Source: a virus. From it: a DNA stretch of 5,760 nt. Below are positions 1 to 5,760 of the stretch, one piece after another (within the stretch, counting starts at the first letter, position 1; each line of letters starts with the position of its first letter). The notes below the pieces were generated by a model. That model searched no databases and was not told where the DNA came from. It saw nothing but the letters and a program-made list of their open reading frames with translations. Location: IMG/VR virus record IMGVR_UViG_3300029391_000100. One strand, given 5' to 3'. The position numbers and the translations under genes were made by a program.

Positions 1-123
1 TGACACTAGGTAACTGTCTATAAAAACTACTTGTGAACCGTCTTTGCAAGCGAATTCCTTTACTTTGAAGTGCTGCCCTACTTTTTTGTTTGCGTCTGTG
101 TCCATGATATAGCTTTCAATCAT
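1..123. repeat. Terminal direct repeat, copy A; identical to 5638..5760 and marks the circular junction of a 5637-nt genome
   Basis: Base-by-base comparison of 1..123 with 5638..5760 shows identity over all 123 nt. The repeat runs to the end of the window, so it may be longer in the source contig. Confidence 0.9.
1..123 (-). CDS. Duplicate of the first 41 codons of the M15 peptidase gene, an artefact of the circular overlap (same gene as 5371..5760)
   Basis: The sequence is identical to 5638..5760. The ATG is the reverse complement of 'cat' at 121..123. The upstream in-frame stop TAA is the reverse complement of 151..153. Confidence 0.8.
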   Translation of the reverse strand, partial: MIESYIMDTDANKKVGQHFKVKEFACKDGSQVVFIDSYLVS

Positions 124-130
124 TTCGGTT

Positions 131-135
131 ACCTC
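131..135 (-). promoter_or_regulatory. Shine-Dalgarno GAGGT for the peptidase gene, 7 nt before the ATG at 123
   Basis: The minus strand reads 'gaaagcgaGGTaaccgaaATG'. Forward 'acctc' at 131..135 is the reverse complement of GAGGT. Confidence 0.6.
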
Positions 136-148
136 GCTTTCTATTGTG

Positions 149-177
149 GATTATACTATATATTTTGTCGTCTGTCA
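149..177 (-). promoter_or_regulatory. Consensus sigma70/sigmaA-type promoter on the minus strand: -35 TTGACA (177..172), 17-nt spacer, -10 TATAAT (154..149), preceded by an A-tract
   Basis: Forward 149..154 'attata' is the reverse complement of TATAAT. Forward 172..177 'tgtcaa' is the reverse complement of TTGACA. The spacer 155..171 is 17 nt. The minus strand upstream reads 'caaaccaaaaaacaa', which is UP-element-like. The -10 lies 25 nt before the peptidase ATG. Confidence 0.7.
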
Positions 178-196
178 ATTGTTTTTTGGTTTGAAT

Positions 197-210
197 GGCG
201 CTTTAGCGCC
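197..210. other. Short GC hairpin ggcgc-ttta-gcgcc between the Rep stop and the main promoter; weak or doubtful terminator
   Basis: A perfect 5-bp inverted repeat with a 4-nt loop is seen directly. On the minus strand it is followed by an A-rich rather than U-rich tract, so an intrinsic-terminator function is uncertain. Confidence 0.3.
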
Positions 211-269
211 TTTCCGTGCGTAGCGTATGCGGAGCTCGGATAATCCATTCCTTGTAAGCGCTGTGCGCG

Positions 270-1274
270 TCATACTTTTGGCTCACGCCACTTTTGTTTT
301 AGCTTGTCCTTTTCTTTTTGAATATTGAGATAGGTTTCATAATCCACGCTTGTGCTCTGTTCGAGATTGACCAAACTTTGTATTGCACTGCGTCTGCGTC
401 TGGCTCTAACCTCTCTCAGCTCGTCAGAATGTGCCTTAAAATAGCTTTCTTTGTCTTGGCTGGTATCTTTATCTAGAATCTTATCAAAATAGCGTGGAGG
501 CCTTTTTTCGCGTCCTCCTGCGCATATGATGCTATCTGTTTTTAAGATTTCATCTTTGTGCTCGTTTAGATATTTTTCGCCGATACCTTTCGACATGATT
601 CTAAACTCTGGTTCTCGACCTTCCATCCAGTATTTTACTGATTGTTCTGTCCCTATAGCTTTTTTGTTGACGTATTGTGCCACGTATGCGAAACTTCCCG
701 GTTGTGCTGGTGAAAAGTCTATCATGCCTTTGCCCCATATTTTTTGTAGCCACTCGCTTTTAAAATAGCTGTTGCCCTTTTGGTTTTTATACCATTGTGC
801 ATCAGGCGGTTTTAGTCCAAATACTATTGCATGATAGTGTGGTCTTTTTGTTCTGTCACCATATTCAGCCGCTAGGAAATATTTTATCGGCTTCTTGTAC
901 GCTTTCCGCAGCCGTTTTAGAAATAGCTGCACGTCTCGTTTGCTTACTGTCTGACTTTGTATGCTTTTGTATCCTTTGATGATTTCGCCGTAGGGTATAT
1001 GGTCGTCGTCATACGTCAGTGTTAGAAAAATCACATCGTCCCACTCTTTGGCTTCTAGCTCTATTCTGGTTGCCCATTGGTCTGCTATCTGTTTGCGGCA
1101 ATACTCGCATTTACCGCATGGTAACAATGCGAATTTTCCTTTTTTGATTCCGTCCATGATGTCCGCTTGCAGTCCTTGTTTTGATAGGTTTTCCAGACTT
1201 CCCCACAGTTTCGGTTTTTTCATATCCATTTGAAATACTAATGGTTTTGTACATGGCATTTTTGTTACCGGCAC
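270..1274 (-). CDS. Rolling-circle replication initiation protein (Microviridae VP4 / phiX174 gpA-like Rep). The probable true start is the ATG at 1259 (MPCTKPL...); the track start at 1274 is a GTG.
   Basis: Superfamily I Rep motifs are present: motif 1 FLTLTY, motif 2 HYHAIVF and motif 3 YVAQYVNKK with a double Tyr. The N-terminus has the Cys-rich segment PCGKCEYCR typical of gokushovirus VP4. Positions 1272..1274 are 'cac' (GTG), and the first ATG is the reverse complement of 'cat' at 1257..1259. The stop TGA is the reverse complement of 270..272. Confidence 0.9.
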   Translation of the reverse strand: MPVTKMPCTKPLVFQMDMKKPKLWGSLENLSKQGLQADIMDGIKKGKFALLPCGKCEYCRKQIADQWATRIELEAKEWDDVIFLTLTYDDDHIPYGEIIKGYKSIQSQTVSKRDVQLFLKRLRKAYKKPIKYFLAAEYGDRTKRPHYHAIVFGLKPPDAQWYKNQKGNSYFKSEWLQKIWGKGMIDFSPAQPGSFAYVAQYVNKKAIGTEQSVKYWMEGREPEFRIMSKGIGEKYLNEHKDEILKTDSIICAGGREKRPPRYFDKILDKDTSQDKESYFKAHSDELREVRARRRRSAIQSLVNLEQSTSVDYETYLNIQKEKDKLKQKWREPKV

Positions 1275-1334
1275 AAGCTTCCTTGTCTATCTTGTGCCGA
1301 TTGACACCTCGCTTCCTTTATATATTAACTTGTT

Positions 1335-1354
1335 GTAGTCGTAGTAGTAGTAGT
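1335..1354. repeat. Trinucleotide microsatellite (GTA)n: four perfect units at 1341..1352 plus imperfect flanking units
   Basis: Direct reading gives 'gtagtcgtagtagtagtagt'. Confidence 0.6.
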
Positions 1355-1521
1355 GTTGAAAGTGTTGAAAACTTGTTTTTTTAACGCTACTACGTTTATT
1401 TATTGCTTGTTTTCTTGTTAAAAATTTTGTTGAAAACTTGTTGAATTGTTGAATGTTCGTCATTTTGACGAATTTATTTGTGCAACTTGTTGTTGAAAAC
1501 CTGTTGAAAGTGTTGAAAACT
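1354..1521. repeat. Iteron array. Eight copies of TGTTGAA(A)(AC) (TTCAACA on the coding strand) in three clusters, including an exact 20-mer direct repeat. This is the probable Rep-binding and origin region.
   Basis: Units start at 1354, 1363, 1429, 1438, 1447, 1491, 1502 and 1511. The 20-mer 'tgttgaaagtgttgaaaact' occurs at 1354..1373 and 1502..1521. The flanking 'acttgtt' recurs at 1371, 1436 and 1485. The region lies in the only large noncoding stretch, immediately upstream of the Rep gene. Confidence 0.6.
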
Positions 1522-1561
1522 CAAGTTTTCCACATTCTCTATTTTCTGGATTATTGTTGTT

Positions 1562-1591
1562 AAAAAAAGGGGGATGTTTTACCATCCCCCT
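1562..1591 (-). terminator. Rho-independent terminator on the minus strand immediately after VP2
   Basis: A perfect 9-bp stem (1568..1576 'agggggatg' and 1583..1591 'catccccct') has a 6-nt loop. On the minus strand it is followed by a run of 7 U (forward A-run 1562..1568). The VP2 stop TAA is at 1601..1599. Confidence 0.75.
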
Positions 1592-1598
1592 TCCTTTC

Positions 1599-2471
1599 TT
1601 AGTCTCCTGTGTATGATTTTCCAGATTTGAATCCATCTATTAGTTTGCGTCTTCTTGCTGTCTTGTTGATAGTATCTTCTGCTATTTTGTCAACACCTTC
1701 TTTGGCTGCTTTACCAGCCTTTCCTACTGCGTCTTTCGCTGCTTTACCAGCTTTCGAAAGACCCGCGCCTAACTTGTTAGCTGCATAGCTGTATTGCTGC
1801 GCCTGTTTTGCGCTTGAGGTTGCCAGCTCGCTCGCTGCCTGTTCCCAGCTTTTCGCATTCTTAAACTGTTTTGCGCTGGTGGCCTGTTTTGCCAGGTTCA
1901 AGTATTTGTCTGCTAGCTCTGCTGTGTTGTTGCCGTATTCGTACATAGCGGATACACTTGCCGCTTGTGCGCTCTGTTGGTTATAACGTTGGCTTCCAAT
2001 GCTTGCAGATGCTCCCGATGGTGCGCTTGTTGCACCGTTGGTCGCTGCCAGAATAGGATTGATGCCCGCTGCAATCATGTCCTTTACGGTATCCTGATAG
2101 GCCGTTCCGCGCATTTCCTTTTGAAACGCTCGTTCTGCTGCTGCTTCTGCGCTGTTGTACTTCTTGGCGCTTGCTTGGCTTCCAGCATTCGCAAGGTTGC
2201 TCAGTAGCCCGCTCATCATTTGTAGTGCGTTTGCGGTGTTTACACTGCTTTGGTTACCAAATGTTGCAATGCCTGTTGGCGTGCTGATTTGTGTTGAACC
2301 TATCTGCTGTGGTGCTGTTACACTGCCGGTTGTGGTCTCGCTGCCGGTTGTGGTTTCGCTGCCTGACCCTTGGCTGTTTTTGGCGCTGCTCTGGTTACTG
2401 CTTGTTATGATGCCTGTTAACATGCTCAGCCCTTTCATGAGGGATGGCAAAAGCTTTAAGAATGTTTCCAT
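1599..2471 (-). CDS. Minor capsid / DNA pilot protein (gokushovirus VP2-like)
   Basis: The 290-aa protein is rich in Gly, Ser, Ala and Gln, with a moderately hydrophobic N-terminal segment (FLKLLPSLMKGLSMLTGII). It sits directly downstream of the major capsid gene, as VP2 does in Microviridae. The ATG is the reverse complement of 'cat' at 2469..2471. Confidence 0.7.
   Translation of the reverse strand: METFLKLLPSLMKGLSMLTGIITSSNQSSAKNSQGSGSETTTGSETTTGSVTAPQQIGSTQISTPTGIATFGNQSSVNTANALQMMSGLLSNLANAGSQASAKKYNSAEAAAERAFQKEMRGTAYQDTVKDMIAAGINPILAATNGATSAPSGASASIGSQRYNQQSAQAASVSAMYEYGNNTAELADKYLNLAKQATSAKQFKNAKSWEQAASELATSSAKQAQQYSYAANKLGAGLSKAGKAAKDAVGKAGKAAKEGVDKIAEDTINKTARRRKLIDGFKSGKSYTGD
2324..2364. 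repeat. In-frame 18-bp tandem duplication inside VP2 (two copies plus a partial third), encoding GSETTT-GSETTT
   Basis: 'ctgccggttgtggtctcg' (2324..2341) and 'ctgccggttgtggtttcg' (2342..2359) differ at one base, then 'ctgcc' follows. The protein reads ...SGSETTTGSETTTGSVT... Confidence 0.8.
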
Positions 2472-2472
2472 T

Positions 2473-2499
2473 CAAAAATAGCCCCGCTTTTGCGGGGCT
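2473..2499 (-). terminator. GC-rich hairpin with U-tract between VP1 and VP2. It is a candidate leaky intrinsic terminator and also sits between the VP2 Shine-Dalgarno and the start codon.
   Basis: The minus strand reads AGCCCCGC-AAAA-GCGGGGCT (8-bp stem, 2499..2480) followed by ATTTTTGA and then the VP2 ATG at 2471. Confidence 0.55.
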
Positions 2500-2500
2500 T

Positions 2501-2509
2501 CCTCCTTCC
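2501..2509 (-). promoter_or_regulatory. Shine-Dalgarno GGAAGGAGG for VP2, 29 nt upstream of the ATG in linear sequence and about 9 nt if the intervening hairpin is folded
   Basis: Forward 'cctccttcc' at 2501..2509 is the reverse complement of GGAAGGAGG. It overlaps the last VP1 codons, and the VP1 stop TAA is at 2512..2510. Confidence 0.5.
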
Positions 2510-4183
2510 TTAAATTCTTTCGATGCCCGGGATGCTGTAGATAGGCATTTCGCGGTACCAGTCTTCGGTGAAGTAGAAGTCACATAAGAACTGATGGCTT
2601 TTTGCGCTTGTTACTGCAATCGTTCGGTCAATGTTCTGTGTTCCTTCCTGTATCCACTCTGCTGAGAGACGCGGAAGCGCGTTATAATCGTCCGCATAGT
2701 GCCATGCATCCAAACTAGTCTTGTAGTTAGAACGCATTTCACCGGTTACGTAGGAAGGTTTGTAGCGGTAGTCTGCCCATGCTTCTTGATATCCAAAGAT
2801 TTCGTTATCTTCTGCCGTGCCCTGTGCATAGATTTCACGGTTATACACCGGCTGTTCACCCAGTGCTGCAAGTCTCGGGTCGTAGTAGGTGAATCGCCCG
2901 CCGCGTGTCCACTTTGTCGCAAGCCCTTGCTGGTAGCTGTGTTCCACTCGTACCACTGCCAGACCGATGATGTAGCCGTTTTCGGTCGCTGCATAGTCTA
3001 CCATTTGCTTGCTGCACGTGGTCAGGCTGTATGCTGCCGTATTGCCTAGTGCCTGACCGGTTGTCGTGTCCGTCTGGCTCGTCTGGACGACCTGATTTAC
3101 ATTGATTGCGATGCGTTGCCCGCCGATGTATTCAGGAATTTGAAGTCGGCTGTCTGGTGACGTTACGCCCCATGTGCCCGATAGGAATTCACGGTATCGC
3201 GTGCCGTTGCGTGCATCTGCCTCGAAGATGTGCTGCAGTGCGATGCTCATGCGTAAATCCTGAATGCTGATCGCGCTTACTCCGCTTAGGTCTGCGCCTA
3301 GATAAGCTATATCATCTACTTTTGAGTTTTTGTTATTGCTTCCAGTTACTAGTCCGGTTCCTTTTCCTACAGTGTCGTTTTCAATTGCTGGTGCGTATTC
3401 GCCTGCATTTGGTTGGTTAAAGTAGATTGCATCTTTTCCACCTGCTGTTCCGAATACGCTTAGTTCTCTGTTTTTGTACAGTCCAACTGGTGCATTGCCA
3501 GTCAGGCTGATTTCCACAGGGTCAGTTTTCAACGGCGAAGGCAAACAGGATGTGAAGTAGTCGTGGAATTTGCCTACCTTTGCCGGAAATCGTGCATATA
3601 AGCTTGCTTCGTTTGTGTTTGTCGTTAGATCCGGTCTGTTTACATAGTATTCTTTTGTATCGTTTCCGGGTGTTTCGTCAGTTCCTCCTTCATCGCTTTT
3701 TTTGTACCCCAGCATGAGCGGTGCTTCTAGGTTTTCATCTCTGAACCACTCGTTGTAAATCATGGCGTATGCGCGTGCTGGCAGCGCGTTGACCTTGATT
3801 TTATTTTTTACTTCGGTTGGCAGTCCGAAGTAGTCGCCTATACTGCCATTTACCAGACCGCTTTTGCCTCCGATTGCGCAAGTCGGTGTGCTGTATTCGG
3901 TCTTTTCTGCCCAGTAGTTTGTATCGTTCTCGCCAAACATGTTCTCCCAGTGCTCCCACAGCAGACGGCACGGAACAAAAAAGAAATAGGTATCCATGTA
4001 GCAGTTATCCATGATAGGATAGATGGGAGTACTCATTCGGATAAGGCCGTTAAGTTGTACTTTTGCGGTATCGCCCGGAAGCACCTCATCACAGTAGATA
4101 GGCACCAAATCGCCTTCGTTGATGGTCGTCAACAGCTGGTGACTTCGGTCAAATTTGCTTCGCGGTCGTTCCATTCGTGGCAC
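2510..4183 (-). CDS. Major capsid protein VP1 (Microviridae F-like, gokushovirus type). The start is ambiguous: GTG at 4183 or ATG at 4174 (MERPRSKFDRSH...).
   Basis: The 557-aa protein has the characteristic N-terminal signature RSKFDRSHQLLTTINEGDLVPIYCDEVLPGDT of gokushovirus VP1. Positions 4181..4183 are 'cac' (GTG), and the first ATG is the reverse complement of 'cat' at 4172..4174. No Shine-Dalgarno lies upstream of either start. Confidence 0.9.
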   Translation of the reverse strand: MPRMERPRSKFDRSHQLLTTINEGDLVPIYCDEVLPGDTAKVQLNGLIRMSTPIYPIMDNCYMDTYFFFVPCRLLWEHWENMFGENDTNYWAEKTEYSTPTCAIGGKSGLVNGSIGDYFGLPTEVKNKIKVNALPARAYAMIYNEWFRDENLEAPLMLGYKKSDEGGTDETPGNDTKEYYVNRPDLTTNTNEASLYARFPAKVGKFHDYFTSCLPSPLKTDPVEISLTGNAPVGLYKNRELSVFGTAGGKDAIYFNQPNAGEYAPAIENDTVGKGTGLVTGSNNKNSKVDDIAYLGADLSGVSAISIQDLRMSIALQHIFEADARNGTRYREFLSGTWGVTSPDSRLQIPEYIGGQRIAINVNQVVQTSQTDTTTGQALGNTAAYSLTTCSKQMVDYAATENGYIIGLAVVRVEHSYQQGLATKWTRGGRFTYYDPRLAALGEQPVYNREIYAQGTAEDNEIFGYQEAWADYRYKPSYVTGEMRSNYKTSLDAWHYADDYNALPRLSAEWIQEGTQNIDRTIAVTSAKSHQFLCDFYFTEDWYREMPIYSIPGIERI

Positions 4184-4199
4184 TTGCGCGAAATGGTTT

Positions 4200-4646
4200 T
4201 CACTGTTTCGGTTCGTTTTCCTTCACCTCTTCCCTCTTTTCTTCCTCTTTCTGCTTCGGCTGTTCGTCTTTCTGCTTCGGCTGTTCGGTCTGTTGCATCT
4301 GTTTCAGCTGTTCCAGTGTTTCGGCTGCAGCCTCGGCTTTTTCGTGCATCGTCATGATGTCTTTTGGCATATTTTCGAGGTCGGTGCCTTCGGTGTATAC
4401 CATGCTTTTAGCTTTGATGCTGGTATCCCCCGCTTCCAGCCGTGCGATTGCGCTTGCAAGGTCGTAGCCCTCGCCGGCTCGTTGGATTTTTTCGTATGTG
4501 TTCTCGTTCGGCTGCTCGATGTAGTCGGTTGTGCCGTTTGGTTGCTTTACCGCTTTCCACGTTGGCGCGGTCGTGCTGCCCGGATTGTTTGGTACTCTCT
4601 CGGTCGTCATACCGTAGAAGCGTACCATCACCTCAGGATTTAACAT
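4200..4646 (-). CDS. Hypothetical 148-aa protein with a Lys/Glu-rich low-complexity C-terminal tail. It is a candidate internal scaffolding (VP3-like) protein by position immediately upstream of VP1.
   Basis: It has a strong Shine-Dalgarno: the minus strand reads 'GAAGGAGGcagccaATG'. The C-terminus is ...QTEQPKQKDEQPKQKEEEKREEVKENEPKQ. Assignment as VP3 rests on position and composition only, because I could not recognise a family signature. Confidence 0.6.
   Translation of the reverse strand: MLNPEVMVRFYGMTTERVPNNPGSTTAPTWKAVKQPNGTTDYIEQPNENTYEKIQRAGEGYDLASAIARLEAGDTSIKAKSMVYTEGTDLENMPKDIMTMHEKAEAAAETLEQLKQMQQTEQPKQKDEQPKQKEEEKREEVKENEPKQ
4241..4282. repeat. In-frame 21-bp tandem duplication (two copies, 41 of 42 nt identical) in the tail of the 148-aa ORF, encoding EQPKQKD/EQPKQKE
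   Basis: 'ctttctgcttcggctgttcgt' (4241..4261) and 'ctttctgcttcggctgttcgg' (4262..4282). Confidence 0.8.
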
Positions 4647-4887
4647 TGGCTGCCTCCTTCAGGTCGATGAGCCGTGTGATGTGTTCAGGCATTGCCTCGC
4701 TCATGTAGCCTGTTTCTGTGTCGAATTCGCCCAGTTCTACTAGCGAAATATCTTCAATTTCGCTGGGCTTGCTCTCGTTGGCCTTCCATCGTGCCGTTCT
4801 AACTGCCTGTGCTCGGTTGTTCTGCAAGAATGGCTGTGAGTAGCCGTTGGTGAGCGAATCGTGGAATGAATAGAATTTCAGTTTCAT
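4633..4887 (-). CDS. Hypothetical 84-aa protein of unknown function; it could be VP5-like or a second scaffold candidate
   Basis: It has a Shine-Dalgarno: the minus strand reads 'taAAGGAGaaaaacATG'. Its 3' end overlaps the next ORF's start by 14 nt (ATGTTAAATCCTGA), consistent with translational coupling. No transmembrane segment is present. Confidence 0.55.
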   Translation of the reverse strand: MKLKFYSFHDSLTNGYSQPFLQNNRAQAVRTARWKANESKPSEIEDISLVELGEFDTETGYMSEAMPEHITRLIDLKEAANVKS

Positions 4888-5016
4888 GTTTTTCTCCTTT
4901 ACTTTTCGTCTTTGTTTGCGTCCTTCAGAGCGTGGTAAATTTCGTCGAGCTTTTCAAGAATGTTCATCATTAGTGCAATTGCTTCTTTAACGTCCTTGAC
5001 TTTGATTAACGCCATT
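4888..5016 (-). CDS. Unlisted 42-aa ORF (MALIKVKDVKEAIALMMNILEKLDEIYHALKDANKDEK) with a consensus Shine-Dalgarno
   Basis: The minus strand reads 'gAAAGGAGGcgaattaATG', giving 7-nt spacing. The stop TAA lies immediately before the Shine-Dalgarno of the 84-aa ORF. It is below the length cutoff of the supplied track and was found by manual translation. Confidence 0.5.
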
Positions 5017-5046
5017 AATTCGCCTCCTTTCTTTGGTTTGCATCGC

Positions 5047-5163
5047 TTACAGTCGGATACCGCCTCGTGAGATTTTCGGTCGGACGTTGATGTCTTTTAC
5101 TTTCTTTGCAGTCTGAGTAAATCGTTTCTGGTCGCCTTTACCTGCTCCGCTTCTATGTGCCAT
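5047..5163 (-). CDS. Unlisted 38-aa highly basic ORF (MAHRSGAGKGDQKRFTQTAKKVKDINVRPKISRGGIRL). It is a candidate DNA-binding/packaging protein analogous to phiX174 J and gokushovirus ORF8.
   Basis: Manual translation of the minus strand gives about 11 Lys/Arg/His in 38 residues, a size and charge like phiX174 J (38 aa). It has a strong Shine-Dalgarno: 'gcgAAGGGAGtaaaacaATG'. It sits among the structural genes. Confidence 0.55.
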   Translation of the reverse strand: MAHRSGAGKGDQKRFTQTAKKVKDINVRPKISRGGIRL

Positions 5164-5167
5164 TGTT

Positions 5168-5368
5168 TTACTCCCTTCGCATTAGTTCTAGTTCAATGTC
5201 GTTTATAAAGCTTTTTATTAGCCAAGTTTCGTTTACTATCTTTTTAGCGTCCTCGATGTTTGACACTTTTTTAAGCATTTTGTAATTGTCATCAATTTCT
5301 TTGTACTTTCGTTTGAGTAGAATTTCTAGTGCTTCTTTGGTCTGGTCTCTTACGTTCCATGTTTTCAT
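5168..5368 (-). CDS. Hypothetical 66-aa charged helical protein. The track's 83-aa version (to 5419) is probably an over-extension.
   Basis: The internal ATG at 5368..5366 is preceded by 'AAGGGGGTGtaacaATG'. The longer version would overlap the peptidase gene by about 50 nt and has no Shine-Dalgarno. The peptidase stop TAA (5373..5371) lies 2 nt before this ATG. Confidence 0.5.
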   Translation of the reverse strand: MKTWNVRDQTKEALEILLKRKYKEIDDNYKMLKKVSNIEDAKKIVNETWLIKSFINDIELELMRRE

Positions 5369-5370
5369 TG

Positions 5371-5760
5371 TTACACCCCCTTTCTGTATTTTTTGGTGCG
5401 TGTGTCGATGTGTACCCACGTGTCATATACGATAATGCCGCATTCATTCGGAATGATTGCATTCAGTTCGTTGGCGATTTCTTTTGCTTTCATTCCATTT
5501 ACTCGAATGTCCGCTGCCATTCCTCGCATGTGATATGAGTACTTTGCACCGCCTACCGCTTCATTCCTTGTTGGTGTCCGGTATCCACTGTTGATGATGA
5601 CAGGTTTTCCGATTTTGTTTCTGAGGATGTCTAGGATTGACACTAGGTAACTGTCTATAAAAACTACTTGTGAACCGTCTTTGCAAGCGAATTCCTTTAC
5701 TTTGAAGTGCTGCCCTACTTTTTTGTTTGCGTCTGTGTCCATGATATAGCTTTCAATCAT
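5371..5760 (-). CDS. Peptidase M15 family zinc D-Ala-D-Ala carboxypeptidase-like peptidoglycan hydrolase; putative lysis enzyme
   Basis: The 129-aa protein has zinc-binding signatures SYHMRGMAAD (H-x6-D) and a downstream VHID, plus SGYRTP, all characteristic of M15/VanY-like peptidases. The ATG at 5760..5758 is the first ATG after the upstream stop, once the circular wrap is taken into account. Confidence 0.8.
   Translation of the reverse strand: MIESYIMDTDANKKVGQHFKVKEFACKDGSQVVFIDSYLVSILDILRNKIGKPVIINSGYRTPTRNEAVGGAKYSYHMRGMAADIRVNGMKAKEIANELNAIIPNECGIIVYDTWVHIDTRTKKYRKGV
5638..5760. repeat. Terminal direct repeat, copy B (circular overlap)
   Basis: Identical to 1..123. Confidence 0.9.

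Follow-up and report, generated by a model that had tools for sequence, protein, structure and literature searches.

We identified an oriC-like cassette in the gokushovirus genome IMGVR_UViG_3300029391_000100 (IMG/VR), which was analysed as a window of 5,760 nucleotides. The cassette lies in the intergenic region at 1275-1598, between a VP2-like gene and the gene for the rolling-circle initiator Rep, and consists of an AT-rich end, DnaA-trios and three clusters of DnaA-box-like 9-mers (Table 1). We propose that it mimics the unwinding module of the host chromosomal origin, the basal unwinding system (BUS) of oriC, and that the phage probably recruits host DnaA; judged from sequence, we put the probability of this reading at roughly 0.6. 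The original prediction for this region, made from the letters alone, was a candidate replication origin with Rep-binding rolling-circle iterons upstream of Rep. The region is a conserved cis-acting element for which replication-origin function is the most plausible reading, and this part of the prediction stands; the iteron part does not.

The heptamer TGTTGAA (TTCAACA on the gene strand) starts at 1354, 1363, 1428, 1439, 1447, 1491, 1502, 1511 and 2292, always on the + strand. These nine copies compare with 1.09 +/- 1.02 expected from 200 dinucleotide-preserving shuffles (maximum 5, none at 9). Eight copies in three clusters had been predicted and are located at 1354-1517, with the clusters starting at 1354, 1428 and 1491 (spacings of 74 and 63 nt). 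Also borne out were an exact 20-mer repeat (TGTTGAAAGTGTTGAAAACT, identical at 1354-1373 and 1502-1521), a recurring flank ACTTGTT (four occurrences in the region, at 1328, 1371, 1436 and 1485) and an AT-rich stretch and GTA run beside the repeats (1317-1329 and 1335-1354; Tandem Repeats Finder period 3, 6.7 copies). The open reading frame (ORF) list and Pfam agree with the prediction that this is the only large intergenic region and adjoins Rep: 1275-1598 is the sole long noncoding stretch of the genome. The GTA run had been taken for a microsatellite. It is not hypervariable; few parts of the element are as conserved, and the run matches DnaA-trios.

A bacterial BUS consists of two DnaA boxes, a short spacer, at least three trios (3'-GAT-5', that is, 5'-TAG-3') and an AT-rich unwinding region (PMC8287927, PMC6669920). 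Boxes have at most two mismatches to TTATCCACA; where two stand in tandem the second may have up to four, and the trio-distal box is the closer match (PMC8287927). The better box lies at most 16 bp from the first trio, with a peak at 10-13 bp (PMC8287927). C. difficile oriC2 provides the trio example CACCTACTACTATTACTACTATGA (PMC7561715, PMC8287927).

In motif content and geometry, the cassette agrees with each sequence-level feature of the BUS that we tested. The box at 1363-1371 has two mismatches to TGTGGATAA and one to TGTGNAWAA, and the box at 1354-1362 has three. Across 113 modules, mismatches to TGTGNAWAA number 0-2 in the proximal box (110 modules) and 1-2 in the distal box (111 modules). 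The better box lies 9 bp from the trios in the window and 9-13 bp in the 113 modules. Four TAG trios at 1342-1353 are joined by a TCG and a further TAG, and at least three consecutive NAN trios abut the boxes in 118 of 119 modules. Trio polarity is that of four bacterial dnaA-dnaN origins described below (L251, L258, L268 and L286) and agrees with the C. difficile trio CTACTACTA. Beyond the trios lies the AT-rich TTTATATATTAAC (1317-1329), a candidate DNA unwinding element (DUE), and the boxes are the variant found in seven bacterial dnaA-side intergenic regions. A strict pattern, (TAG)>=3 and then, in the next 16 nt, a box with at most two mismatches, occurs once in the genome and in none of 2,000 dinucleotide-preserving shuffles. 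Location is where the cassette departs from a chromosomal origin: it sits in a 5.6-kb microvirus between a VP2-like gene and Rep, not beside dnaA or dnaN, and is thus an oriC-like cassette or mimic rather than a chromosomal oriC.

The box consensus, built from 1,004 seed matches, is TGTTGAAAA, with T (90%) or G (10%) at position 4, where the seed permitted T or G alone. Both G variants, TGTGGAAAA and TGTGGATAA, match the DnaA-box consensus TTWTNCACA perfectly, and TGTTGAAAA alternates with both at aligned box positions among relatives. Read on the gene strand, the window has TTTTCAACA-C-TTTCAACA-CTACTACTACTACGACTAC-AACAAGTTAATATATAAA.

An alignment of 36 diverse modules reveals a fixed order. 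An AT-rich end (TATTATATA) is followed by the invariant TAACTTGTTG, by TAG-nn(G)-TAG-TAG-TAG, by a 0-4-bp, often G-rich spacer (GGAG, GGGC, AGGT) and by two abutting 9-mers; beyond a variable, AT-rich spacer, four boxes form a highly conserved cluster, followed by a small hairpin and a last cluster of three or four boxes. TAACTTGTTG is phage-specific and marks the boundary between the trios and the AT-rich end. TTGTTGTAGnnGTAGTAGTAG is nearly invariant across the aligned modules, and the central box cluster is the most conserved block. At the DUE-equivalent place, A+T averages 71% over 20 nt (119 modules). Hairpins of other sequence occupy the place equivalent to 1455-1473 in several relatives. 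The inverted box at 1526-1534 is confined to the window's clade and a few relatives; together with 1511-1521 it can pair as a hairpin with a double-stranded box.

The cassette is broadly conserved among gokushoviruses that are otherwise highly diverged. We identified 42 phage records in a sensitive blastn search with the intergenic region alone, all of them Microviridae/Gokushovirus from human, pig, monkey, mink, raccoon and dog samples (72-94% identity over query positions 43-260). In the diverged matches, window positions ~1317-1534 align at 72-80% identity and the remaining genome is unalignable as DNA. Close relatives (~50 IMG/VR contigs, Rep 93-97% identical) carry 7-9 heptamer copies at fixed positions upstream of Rep. 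These genomes are >90% identical throughout and do not separate boxes from spacers, and distant relatives were used instead. Loci retrieved by Rep alignment have the same array in genomes whose Rep is 33-40% identical, and the box consensus is identical over genomes spanning 33-100% Rep identity. The resulting cassette set comprises at least 119 distinct ~5.5-kb microvirus contigs. The original prediction had proposed comparing the heptamer across related genomes: 7-10 copies are kept in ~119 related contigs, and within this clade the repeats are not lost beside conserved flanking genes. In IMG/VR, the trio signature is restricted to ~5.5-kb microvirus contigs, save for low-complexity coding matches. 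We rejected the cassette as a general mobile element, as the large-contig trio matches were low-complexity coding repeats and PLSDB plasmids contained no match.

Other repeats were seen in Rep relatives that lack the cassette. Two of these (L092 and L095) repeat a different 8-mer, GTCTACCC, 3-5 times within ~200 nt, possibly a repeat element of another kind that belongs to a different gokushovirus lineage. A genome with Rep 55% identical to a cassette-bearing Rep (L096) has TGTTAAAA four times at 4538-4620, without the trio signature; this array may be a degenerate or variant cassette.

The cassette occupies different positions in different genomes. In 49 contigs, which form the window's clade, it is flanked by VP2 and Rep, and TTCAACA reads on the gene strand (one extra contig was scored as VP1 to Rep). 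Sixty-nine contigs have it downstream of Rep, before the next gene, with TGTTGAA on the gene strand in 66 and the opposite orientation in three (L004, L069 and L184). When these three are compared with the nearest same-orientation genome, the flanks are collinear for ~1-2 kb on each side (82-91% identity) and enclose a 212-213-bp segment that aligns in reverse. The inversion junctions are TATAATAT..TAACTTG at one end and GTTGAAAAC at the opposite end, between GC-rich GCGCAC-type flanks. Such precise in-place inversions imply a discrete cassette that would work in either orientation. By this comparison, the cassette is a portable ~210-bp unit that appears to work on either side of Rep and either way round. 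The AT-rich end faces the Rep gene in both main arrangements.

We also asked of the strand skew whether the packaged strand flips with the cassette. On the assumption that skew at fourfold sites reflects the packaged strand, a flip has no support: A>T skew tracks the gene strand alike in both orientation classes (0.58 vs 0.60; 0.54 in the window). The strength of this gene-strand skew (means of 0.58-0.60 over 119 genomes) may reflect packaged-strand mutation bias or selection. The coding strand of phiX174 is T-rich, which is the opposite direction of skew.

Two contigs have unusual arrangements. The Rep of L013 (IMGVR_UViG_3300045988_015275) is 96% identical to that of the window, yet its cassette is found downstream of Rep and in the opposite orientation, with just ~115 nt separating VP2 from Rep; this single contig arose either by recombination of the two layouts or as a chimeric assembly. 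In L028 (10.7 kb, about twice unit length), the heptamer cluster is present both ways round, with 9 forward and 8 reverse copies; the contig is probably a head-to-head dimer or an artefact of assembly or multiple displacement amplification.

Counterparts of the cassette were identified in bacterial chromosomes. With each GTDB species represented by one genome, a scan for three copies of TGTTGAAA in ~84 nt gave at least 120 loci. By their titles, roughly a quarter of the 120 listed loci belong to Oscillospiraceae, Ruminococcus, Ruminococcaceae and related Clostridia metagenome-assembled genomes (MAGs). The full phage-like architecture is present in four Oscillospiraceae loci (L251, L268, L286, L343) and in loci from Ruminococcus (L258), Eubacteriales (L288) and Anaerofilum (L309). 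It reads AT-rich-(TAG)4-5-GGGG/GGGC/GGTA-TGTTGAAAcTGTTGAAAA plus 5-23 further boxes, adjoining dnaA; one example is gtatatatgttTAGTAGTAGTAGTAGggggTGTTGAAAcTGTTGAAAA, and the further boxes are of the TGTTGAAA/TGTGGAAA type. Pfam domains Bac_DnaA and Bac_DnaA_C were found in L251, L258, L268, L286 and L288, and dnaN (three DNA_pol3_beta domains) lies on the far side in L251, L268 and L286; flanking genes of the remaining loci were assigned by ORF size. With dnaA, boxes, trios, AT-rich tract and dnaN in this order, the arrays occupy the place of the unwinding half in Firmicute origins. TGTTGAAA and TGTGGAAA dominate the seven dnaA-side intergenic regions (74 and 17 copies), and box position 4 is T in 80% and G in 19% of bacterial boxes vs 90% and 10% in phage modules. 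The phage-specific signature is absent from all listed bacterial loci.

The DnaA proteins of these counterpart bacteria contain GGRDHS-T-(I/V)-V-Y where B. subtilis has GGRDHTTVIH, which corresponds to T435S and H439Y. Positions 435 and 439 are listed as base-specific DnaA contacts (PMC7561715), and the two substitutions would fit an altered box preference. With TGTTGAAA (TTTCAACA) as the dominant box variant, Ser in place of E. coli T435 and Tyr in place of H439, the Oscillospiraceae/Ruminococcus-type DnaA looks like a natural specificity variant, of which we found no description. Since TGTTGAAAA (TTTTCAACA) is used in Oscillospiraceae/Ruminococcaceae-type dnaA-dnaN origins, those Clostridia are the predicted hosts of the phages, and the gut origin of the phages makes Oscillospirales likely hosts. 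Arrays of TAG trios with TGTTGAAA boxes also occur outside Clostridia, in a Mesoaciditoga MAG (L320, 2438-2755), in Chloroflexota (L313) and in two Anaerolineae (L244, L339). The Mesoaciditoga array lies between groEL and a metallophosphatase gene and not beside dnaA.

We propose the following mechanism. Host ATP-DnaA would bind the boxes on the double-stranded replicative form, polymerise from the trio-proximal box pair onto the TAG strand and melt the adjoining AT-rich tract. The opening could then serve as the loading site of the host helicase and primosome, with a DnaA-dependent origin sustaining replication or persistence of the replicative form; alternatively, it could supply the single-stranded substrate that the phage HUH Rep requires. 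An element that acts on duplex DNA through a host protein would work on either side of Rep and in either orientation. Mimicry of the host origin would thus account for the position and orientation independence of the cassette, for its conservation despite extreme Rep divergence and for the conservation of trios, spacer and AT-rich tract besides the boxes. It would also account for gokushoviruses without a cassette, which presumably have other hosts. The AT-rich end facing Rep and TAACTTGTTG at the trio/AT-rich boundary at most hint at cooperation with Rep. More tentatively than the mimicry itself, we suggest that a large clade of gut gokushoviruses may possess a working copy of the host origin-opening module, in which DnaA, not Rep, would open the replicative form and either start theta-like replication or persistence or feed the HUH Rep.

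Several observations weigh against mimicry of the host origin. First, most boxes depart from TTWTNCACA at position 6 (C to A), so that DnaA binding rests on analogy with unstudied Oscillospiraceae origins. Second, the AT-rich tract of the window is short (13 nt). Third, ~39 further Rep relatives have neither repeat array nor TAG run. Their Reps are <=42% identical to any cassette-bearing Rep (one is at 55%), and these comparably distant gokushoviruses indicate that the cassette is accessory and not the core origin of the family. Fourth, the bacterial loci, all of them MAG contigs, were found by searching for the cassette box itself, which introduces an ascertainment bias. Their similarity to the cassette is at the motif level alone, in stretches of 20-45 nt, and on this ground we rejected recent capture from a sampled host origin. 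Moreover, to our knowledge, known Microviridae such as phiX174 need no DnaA. Finally, cassette function is deduced wholly from sequence, and a pure decoy or a transcriptional DnaA-binding role would leave an identical signature.

This last possibility is a serious rival, although we consider it much the less probable of the two. DnaA would bind the cassette without starting replication, either at a decoy, similar to datA or the DnaA-box clusters, that titrates host DnaA-ATP and so blocks or reprogrammes chromosome initiation in the host, or as a way of coupling transcription to DnaA status. The DnaA-binding sequence evidence is the same as for origin mimicry, and a multicopy replicative form with 8-10 boxes each would be an effective sink. 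Regulation is conceivable in that the commonest arrangement places the cassette ~90 nt upstream of the main sigma70-type promoter. A sink or an operator needs boxes alone, yet the unwinding geometry is kept in 118 of the 119 modules. The window's clade has furthermore lost the promoter proximity (178-150 vs 1317-1520) without decay of the cassette.

The model of the original prediction, in which the heptamers are Rep-bound iterons that mark a rolling-circle plus-strand origin by the Rep gene, is improbable. Direct repeats do lie near Rep in the sole large intergenic region of the window's clade, the AT-rich end is turned toward Rep in both main arrangements, and TAACTTG by the AT-rich tract shares AACTTG with the phiX174 core CAACTTG/ATA. 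Iterons normally co-vary with their initiator; here, the box consensus stays constant with Rep down to 33% identity. A fixed polarity and position would also be expected, yet the cassette occurs on both sides of Rep and in both orientations, has been inverted in place three times and leaves the skew with the genes. Its presence on either side of Rep and its in-place inversion make a strand-specific nick site unlikely. The same repeats build bacterial dnaA-dnaN origins, and Rep relatives without any array exist. The phiX-type 18-mer is absent as well: neither strand has a phiX174-like origin (CAACTTG/ATATTAATAAC..., which protein A recognises), even with 3 mismatches allowed, and the hexamer AACTTG alone recurs from it, within the box spacing.

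Still less probable is a single-strand (complementary-strand) origin, in which the packaged strand folds and recruits RNA polymerase, primase or a DnaA-dependent 'ABC primosome'. The small hairpin at 1455-1473 and, in the window's clade, the pairing of 1506-1521 with 1524-1539, which sets a DnaA box in a stem, would suit such an origin, and both DNA strands fold slightly better than shuffles (z = -1.8 and -2.1). This stability is unremarkable, the hairpins are unconserved and the box hairpin is missing in most relatives. A single-strand origin is strictly strand-specific in principle, yet both cassette orientations occur with the gene-strand skew unchanged. An Rfam scan of the whole window found nothing near gathering thresholds, and a small RNA or known RNA family was rejected.

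Equally improbable is another DNA-binding protein, either Spo0A of a spore-forming host, since TGTTGAA is one base from the 0A-box consensus TGNCGAA (0A box TGTCGAA) and a Clostridia origin (L325) has TGTCGAAAG at the trio-proximal place, or a small phage protein from the unassigned small ORFs at 4899-5419: T (90%) and G (10%) share box position 4 (T/G alone in the seed), the G variants are perfect DnaA boxes and not 0A boxes, and the link to trios, spacer, AT-rich tract and dnaA-dnaN location is specific to DnaA. A CodY box and a Firmicute dif/XerCD site resembling CTTCCTTTATATATTAAC were dropped by eye, the AT-rich part being better explained as a trio-linked unwinding tract.

The window represents a complete circular microvirus genome of ~5,639 bp with a 121-nt assembly overlap (1-121 = 5640-5760). 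The genome is that of a gokushovirus, with KX513876 (Human gut gokushovirus) and MT121961 (Gokushovirinae sp.) as the nearest records (~87% identity), and all recognisable genes lie on the - strand (Table 1). The 290-aa ORF has no Pfam match. Rep contains the motifs HYH and two-tyrosine YVARYVxKK, at columns that are invariant in the Rep alignment of relatives; the Rep start in KX513876 is annotated at the ATG equivalent to 1259. The peptidase M15 is presumably the lysis enzyme. We also noted in-frame tandem repeats in the VP2-like gene (2323-2363; 18-nt unit, 2.3 copies) and in VP3 (4242-4287; 21-nt unit, 2.2 copies).

A perfect sigma70 consensus promoter (TTGACA-17-TATAAT, 178..150, - strand) directly precedes the peptidase M15 gene. 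Intrinsic terminators follow VP1 (2499-2480) and the 290-aa gene; the latter was absent from the original prediction and bounds the cassette region, separating the 290-aa gene from the repeats. This arrangement points to a single main transcript; Rep expression would then depend on read-through or on a weak promoter. A Rep promoter within the intergenic region was rejected: the only candidate was a weak 9/12 match at 1563-1534, and no convincing -35/-10 was seen by eye. The inverted repeat at the Rep start is invariant in ~40 close relatives and may control Rep translation or serve as a strand-specific cis site.

A second conserved, noncoding-looking element lies directly downstream of Rep (185-270, - strand). 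It is 82-96% identical among otherwise diverged pig and human microviruses and is present in 71 of the 119 cassette-bearing genomes, every time in the gene-strand orientation; in most relatives it abuts the cassette. The element contains a GC hairpin (GGCGC-TAAA-GCGCC). A basic peptide of 32 aa (MTRTALTRNGLSELRIRYARKGAKAPFKPKNN), coupled to Rep via ATGA, could be encoded here, but frames differ between relatives, which makes coding uncertain. We regard the element as a candidate strand-specific signal, for example a nick site or a single-strand origin.

Table 1. Cassette components, genes and other signals of the window, with positions in window coordinates.
Feature	Position	Strand	Remarks
Whole cassette	1317..1520	+	AT-rich end, DnaA-trios and three DnaA-box-like 9-mer clusters; homologous to the ~212-bp unit of relatives
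AT-rich tract, candidate DUE	1317..1329	+	TTTATATATTAAC; distal to trios; from sequence
DnaA-trio array	1330..1353	+	TTG TTG TAG TCG TAG TAG TAG TAG; 5'-TAG-3' = 3'-GAT-5'; formerly '(GTA)n microsatellite'
Tandem DnaA-box-like pair	1354..1371	+	Proximal TGTTGAAAG (1354-1362), distal TGTTGAAAA (1363-1371); adjoins trios
Central box cluster	1416..1455	+	TGTTAAAAA (degenerate, 1416), TGTTGAAAA (1428), TGTTGAATT (1439), TGTTGAATG (1447)
Small hairpin	1455..1473	+	GTTCGTCATTTTGACGAAT; between box clusters 2 and 3
Third box cluster	1491..1519	+	TGTTGAAAA (1491), TGTTGAAAG (1502), TGTTGAAAA (1511)
Inverted box	1526..1534	-	TGTGGAAAA on -, TTTTCCACA on +; the genome's only perfect TTWTNCACA match
Inverted repeat at Rep start	1269..1299	-	Perfect 9-bp repeat CGGCACAAG / CTTGTGCCG, 13-nt loop; spans Shine-Dalgarno-like AAGGAAG and GTG 1274
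Intrinsic terminator of 290-aa gene	stem 1592-1567, T-run 1566-1560	-	GC-rich stem, T-run TTTTTTT; strong
Rep/VP4, HUH rolling-circle initiator	270..1274	-	Pfam REP_ORF2-G2P (PF23343), 1.3e-20
290-aa ORF, VP2-like	1599..2471	-	Called VP2 by position and annotation of relatives KX513876 and KT264784
Major capsid F/VP1	4183..2510	-	
Scaffold VP3	4646..4200	-	
VP5-like ORF	4887..4633	-	
Peptidase M15	5760/121..5371	-	Pfam Peptidase_M15_3, 8.9e-24; first gene behind the main promoter

Gokushoviruses are the dominant microviruses of animal guts, and their replication signals are essentially undefined. Our analysis supplies a concrete cis element together with a likely protein partner, host DnaA, and suggests Oscillospiraceae/Ruminococcaceae as the hosts of a widespread microvirus clade. 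If functional, the cassette would mean that a minimal rolling-circle single-stranded-DNA phage has borrowed the origin-opening logic of its host chromosome, which bears on replication, on possible episomal persistence in slow-growing anaerobes and on interference with host initiation. A DnaA-melted bubble received by the HUH Rep would amount to a hybrid DnaA-plus-nickase initiation, undescribed for rolling-circle replicons. If host DnaA opens the replicative form, hosts of uncultured microviruses could also be predicted from DnaA-box variants, which here indicate Oscillospiraceae/Ruminococcaceae. For bacterial replication, the variant box (TTTTCAACA) paired with DnaA T435S and H439Y would be of interest as a natural specificity variant. 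Our literature search, the coverage of which was incomplete (most subscription journals lay outside it), found no DnaA boxes, DnaA-trios or oriC-like elements described for Microviridae.

Several known replication systems share features with the cassette. Within the same family, phiX174 has a homologous two-tyrosine HUH Rep (YVARYVxKK), a 30-nt origin inside gene A, and PriA or primase sites for the complementary strand. The cassette, in contrast, lies outside Rep, is orientation-independent, is missing from many gokushoviruses and contains no phiX-like origin sequence. CRESS-DNA (circular Rep-encoding single-stranded DNA) viruses and geminiviruses also have intergenic direct repeats by a HUH Rep gene. 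Their iterons co-vary with Rep and keep a fixed polarity by a nonanucleotide stem-loop, whereas the cassette repeats are constant across 33%-identical Reps and invertible.

The replicons pSC101, F, RK2, R6K and P1 oriR combine their own initiator with host DnaA boxes; these origins are theta-type, with Rep iterons and one to few boxes. We know of none among these plasmid and phage origins that reproduces a trio-based BUS. The cassette resembles them as part of a mobile replicon that has its own initiator plus host-DnaA sites in the origin region. It differs from them in that it has no recognisable Rep iterons, that the initiator is a HUH nickase and that the DnaA module is complete and self-contained.

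The closest likeness is to the bacterial BUS of B. subtilis incC and C. difficile oriC2, with the same elements in the same order and orientation (PMC6669920, PMC8287927, PMC7561715). Box-to-trio spacing (9-13 bp to the better box), (TAG)n trios and, in relatives, a short G-rich spacer are shared, and the box variant is that of Oscillospiraceae-type dnaA-dnaN origins. The carrier differs, being a 5.6-kb single-stranded-DNA phage with a HUH rolling-circle Rep, away from dnaA and dnaN. Also distinct are the compact size (~210 bp), the single copy, the relocation and inversion among relatives and the phage-specific TAACTTGTTG of a cassette known from sequence. Most probably, the cassette is a host-DnaA-dependent, oriC/BUS-like element that extends the host-initiator-dependent origins to an unexpected kind of carrier.

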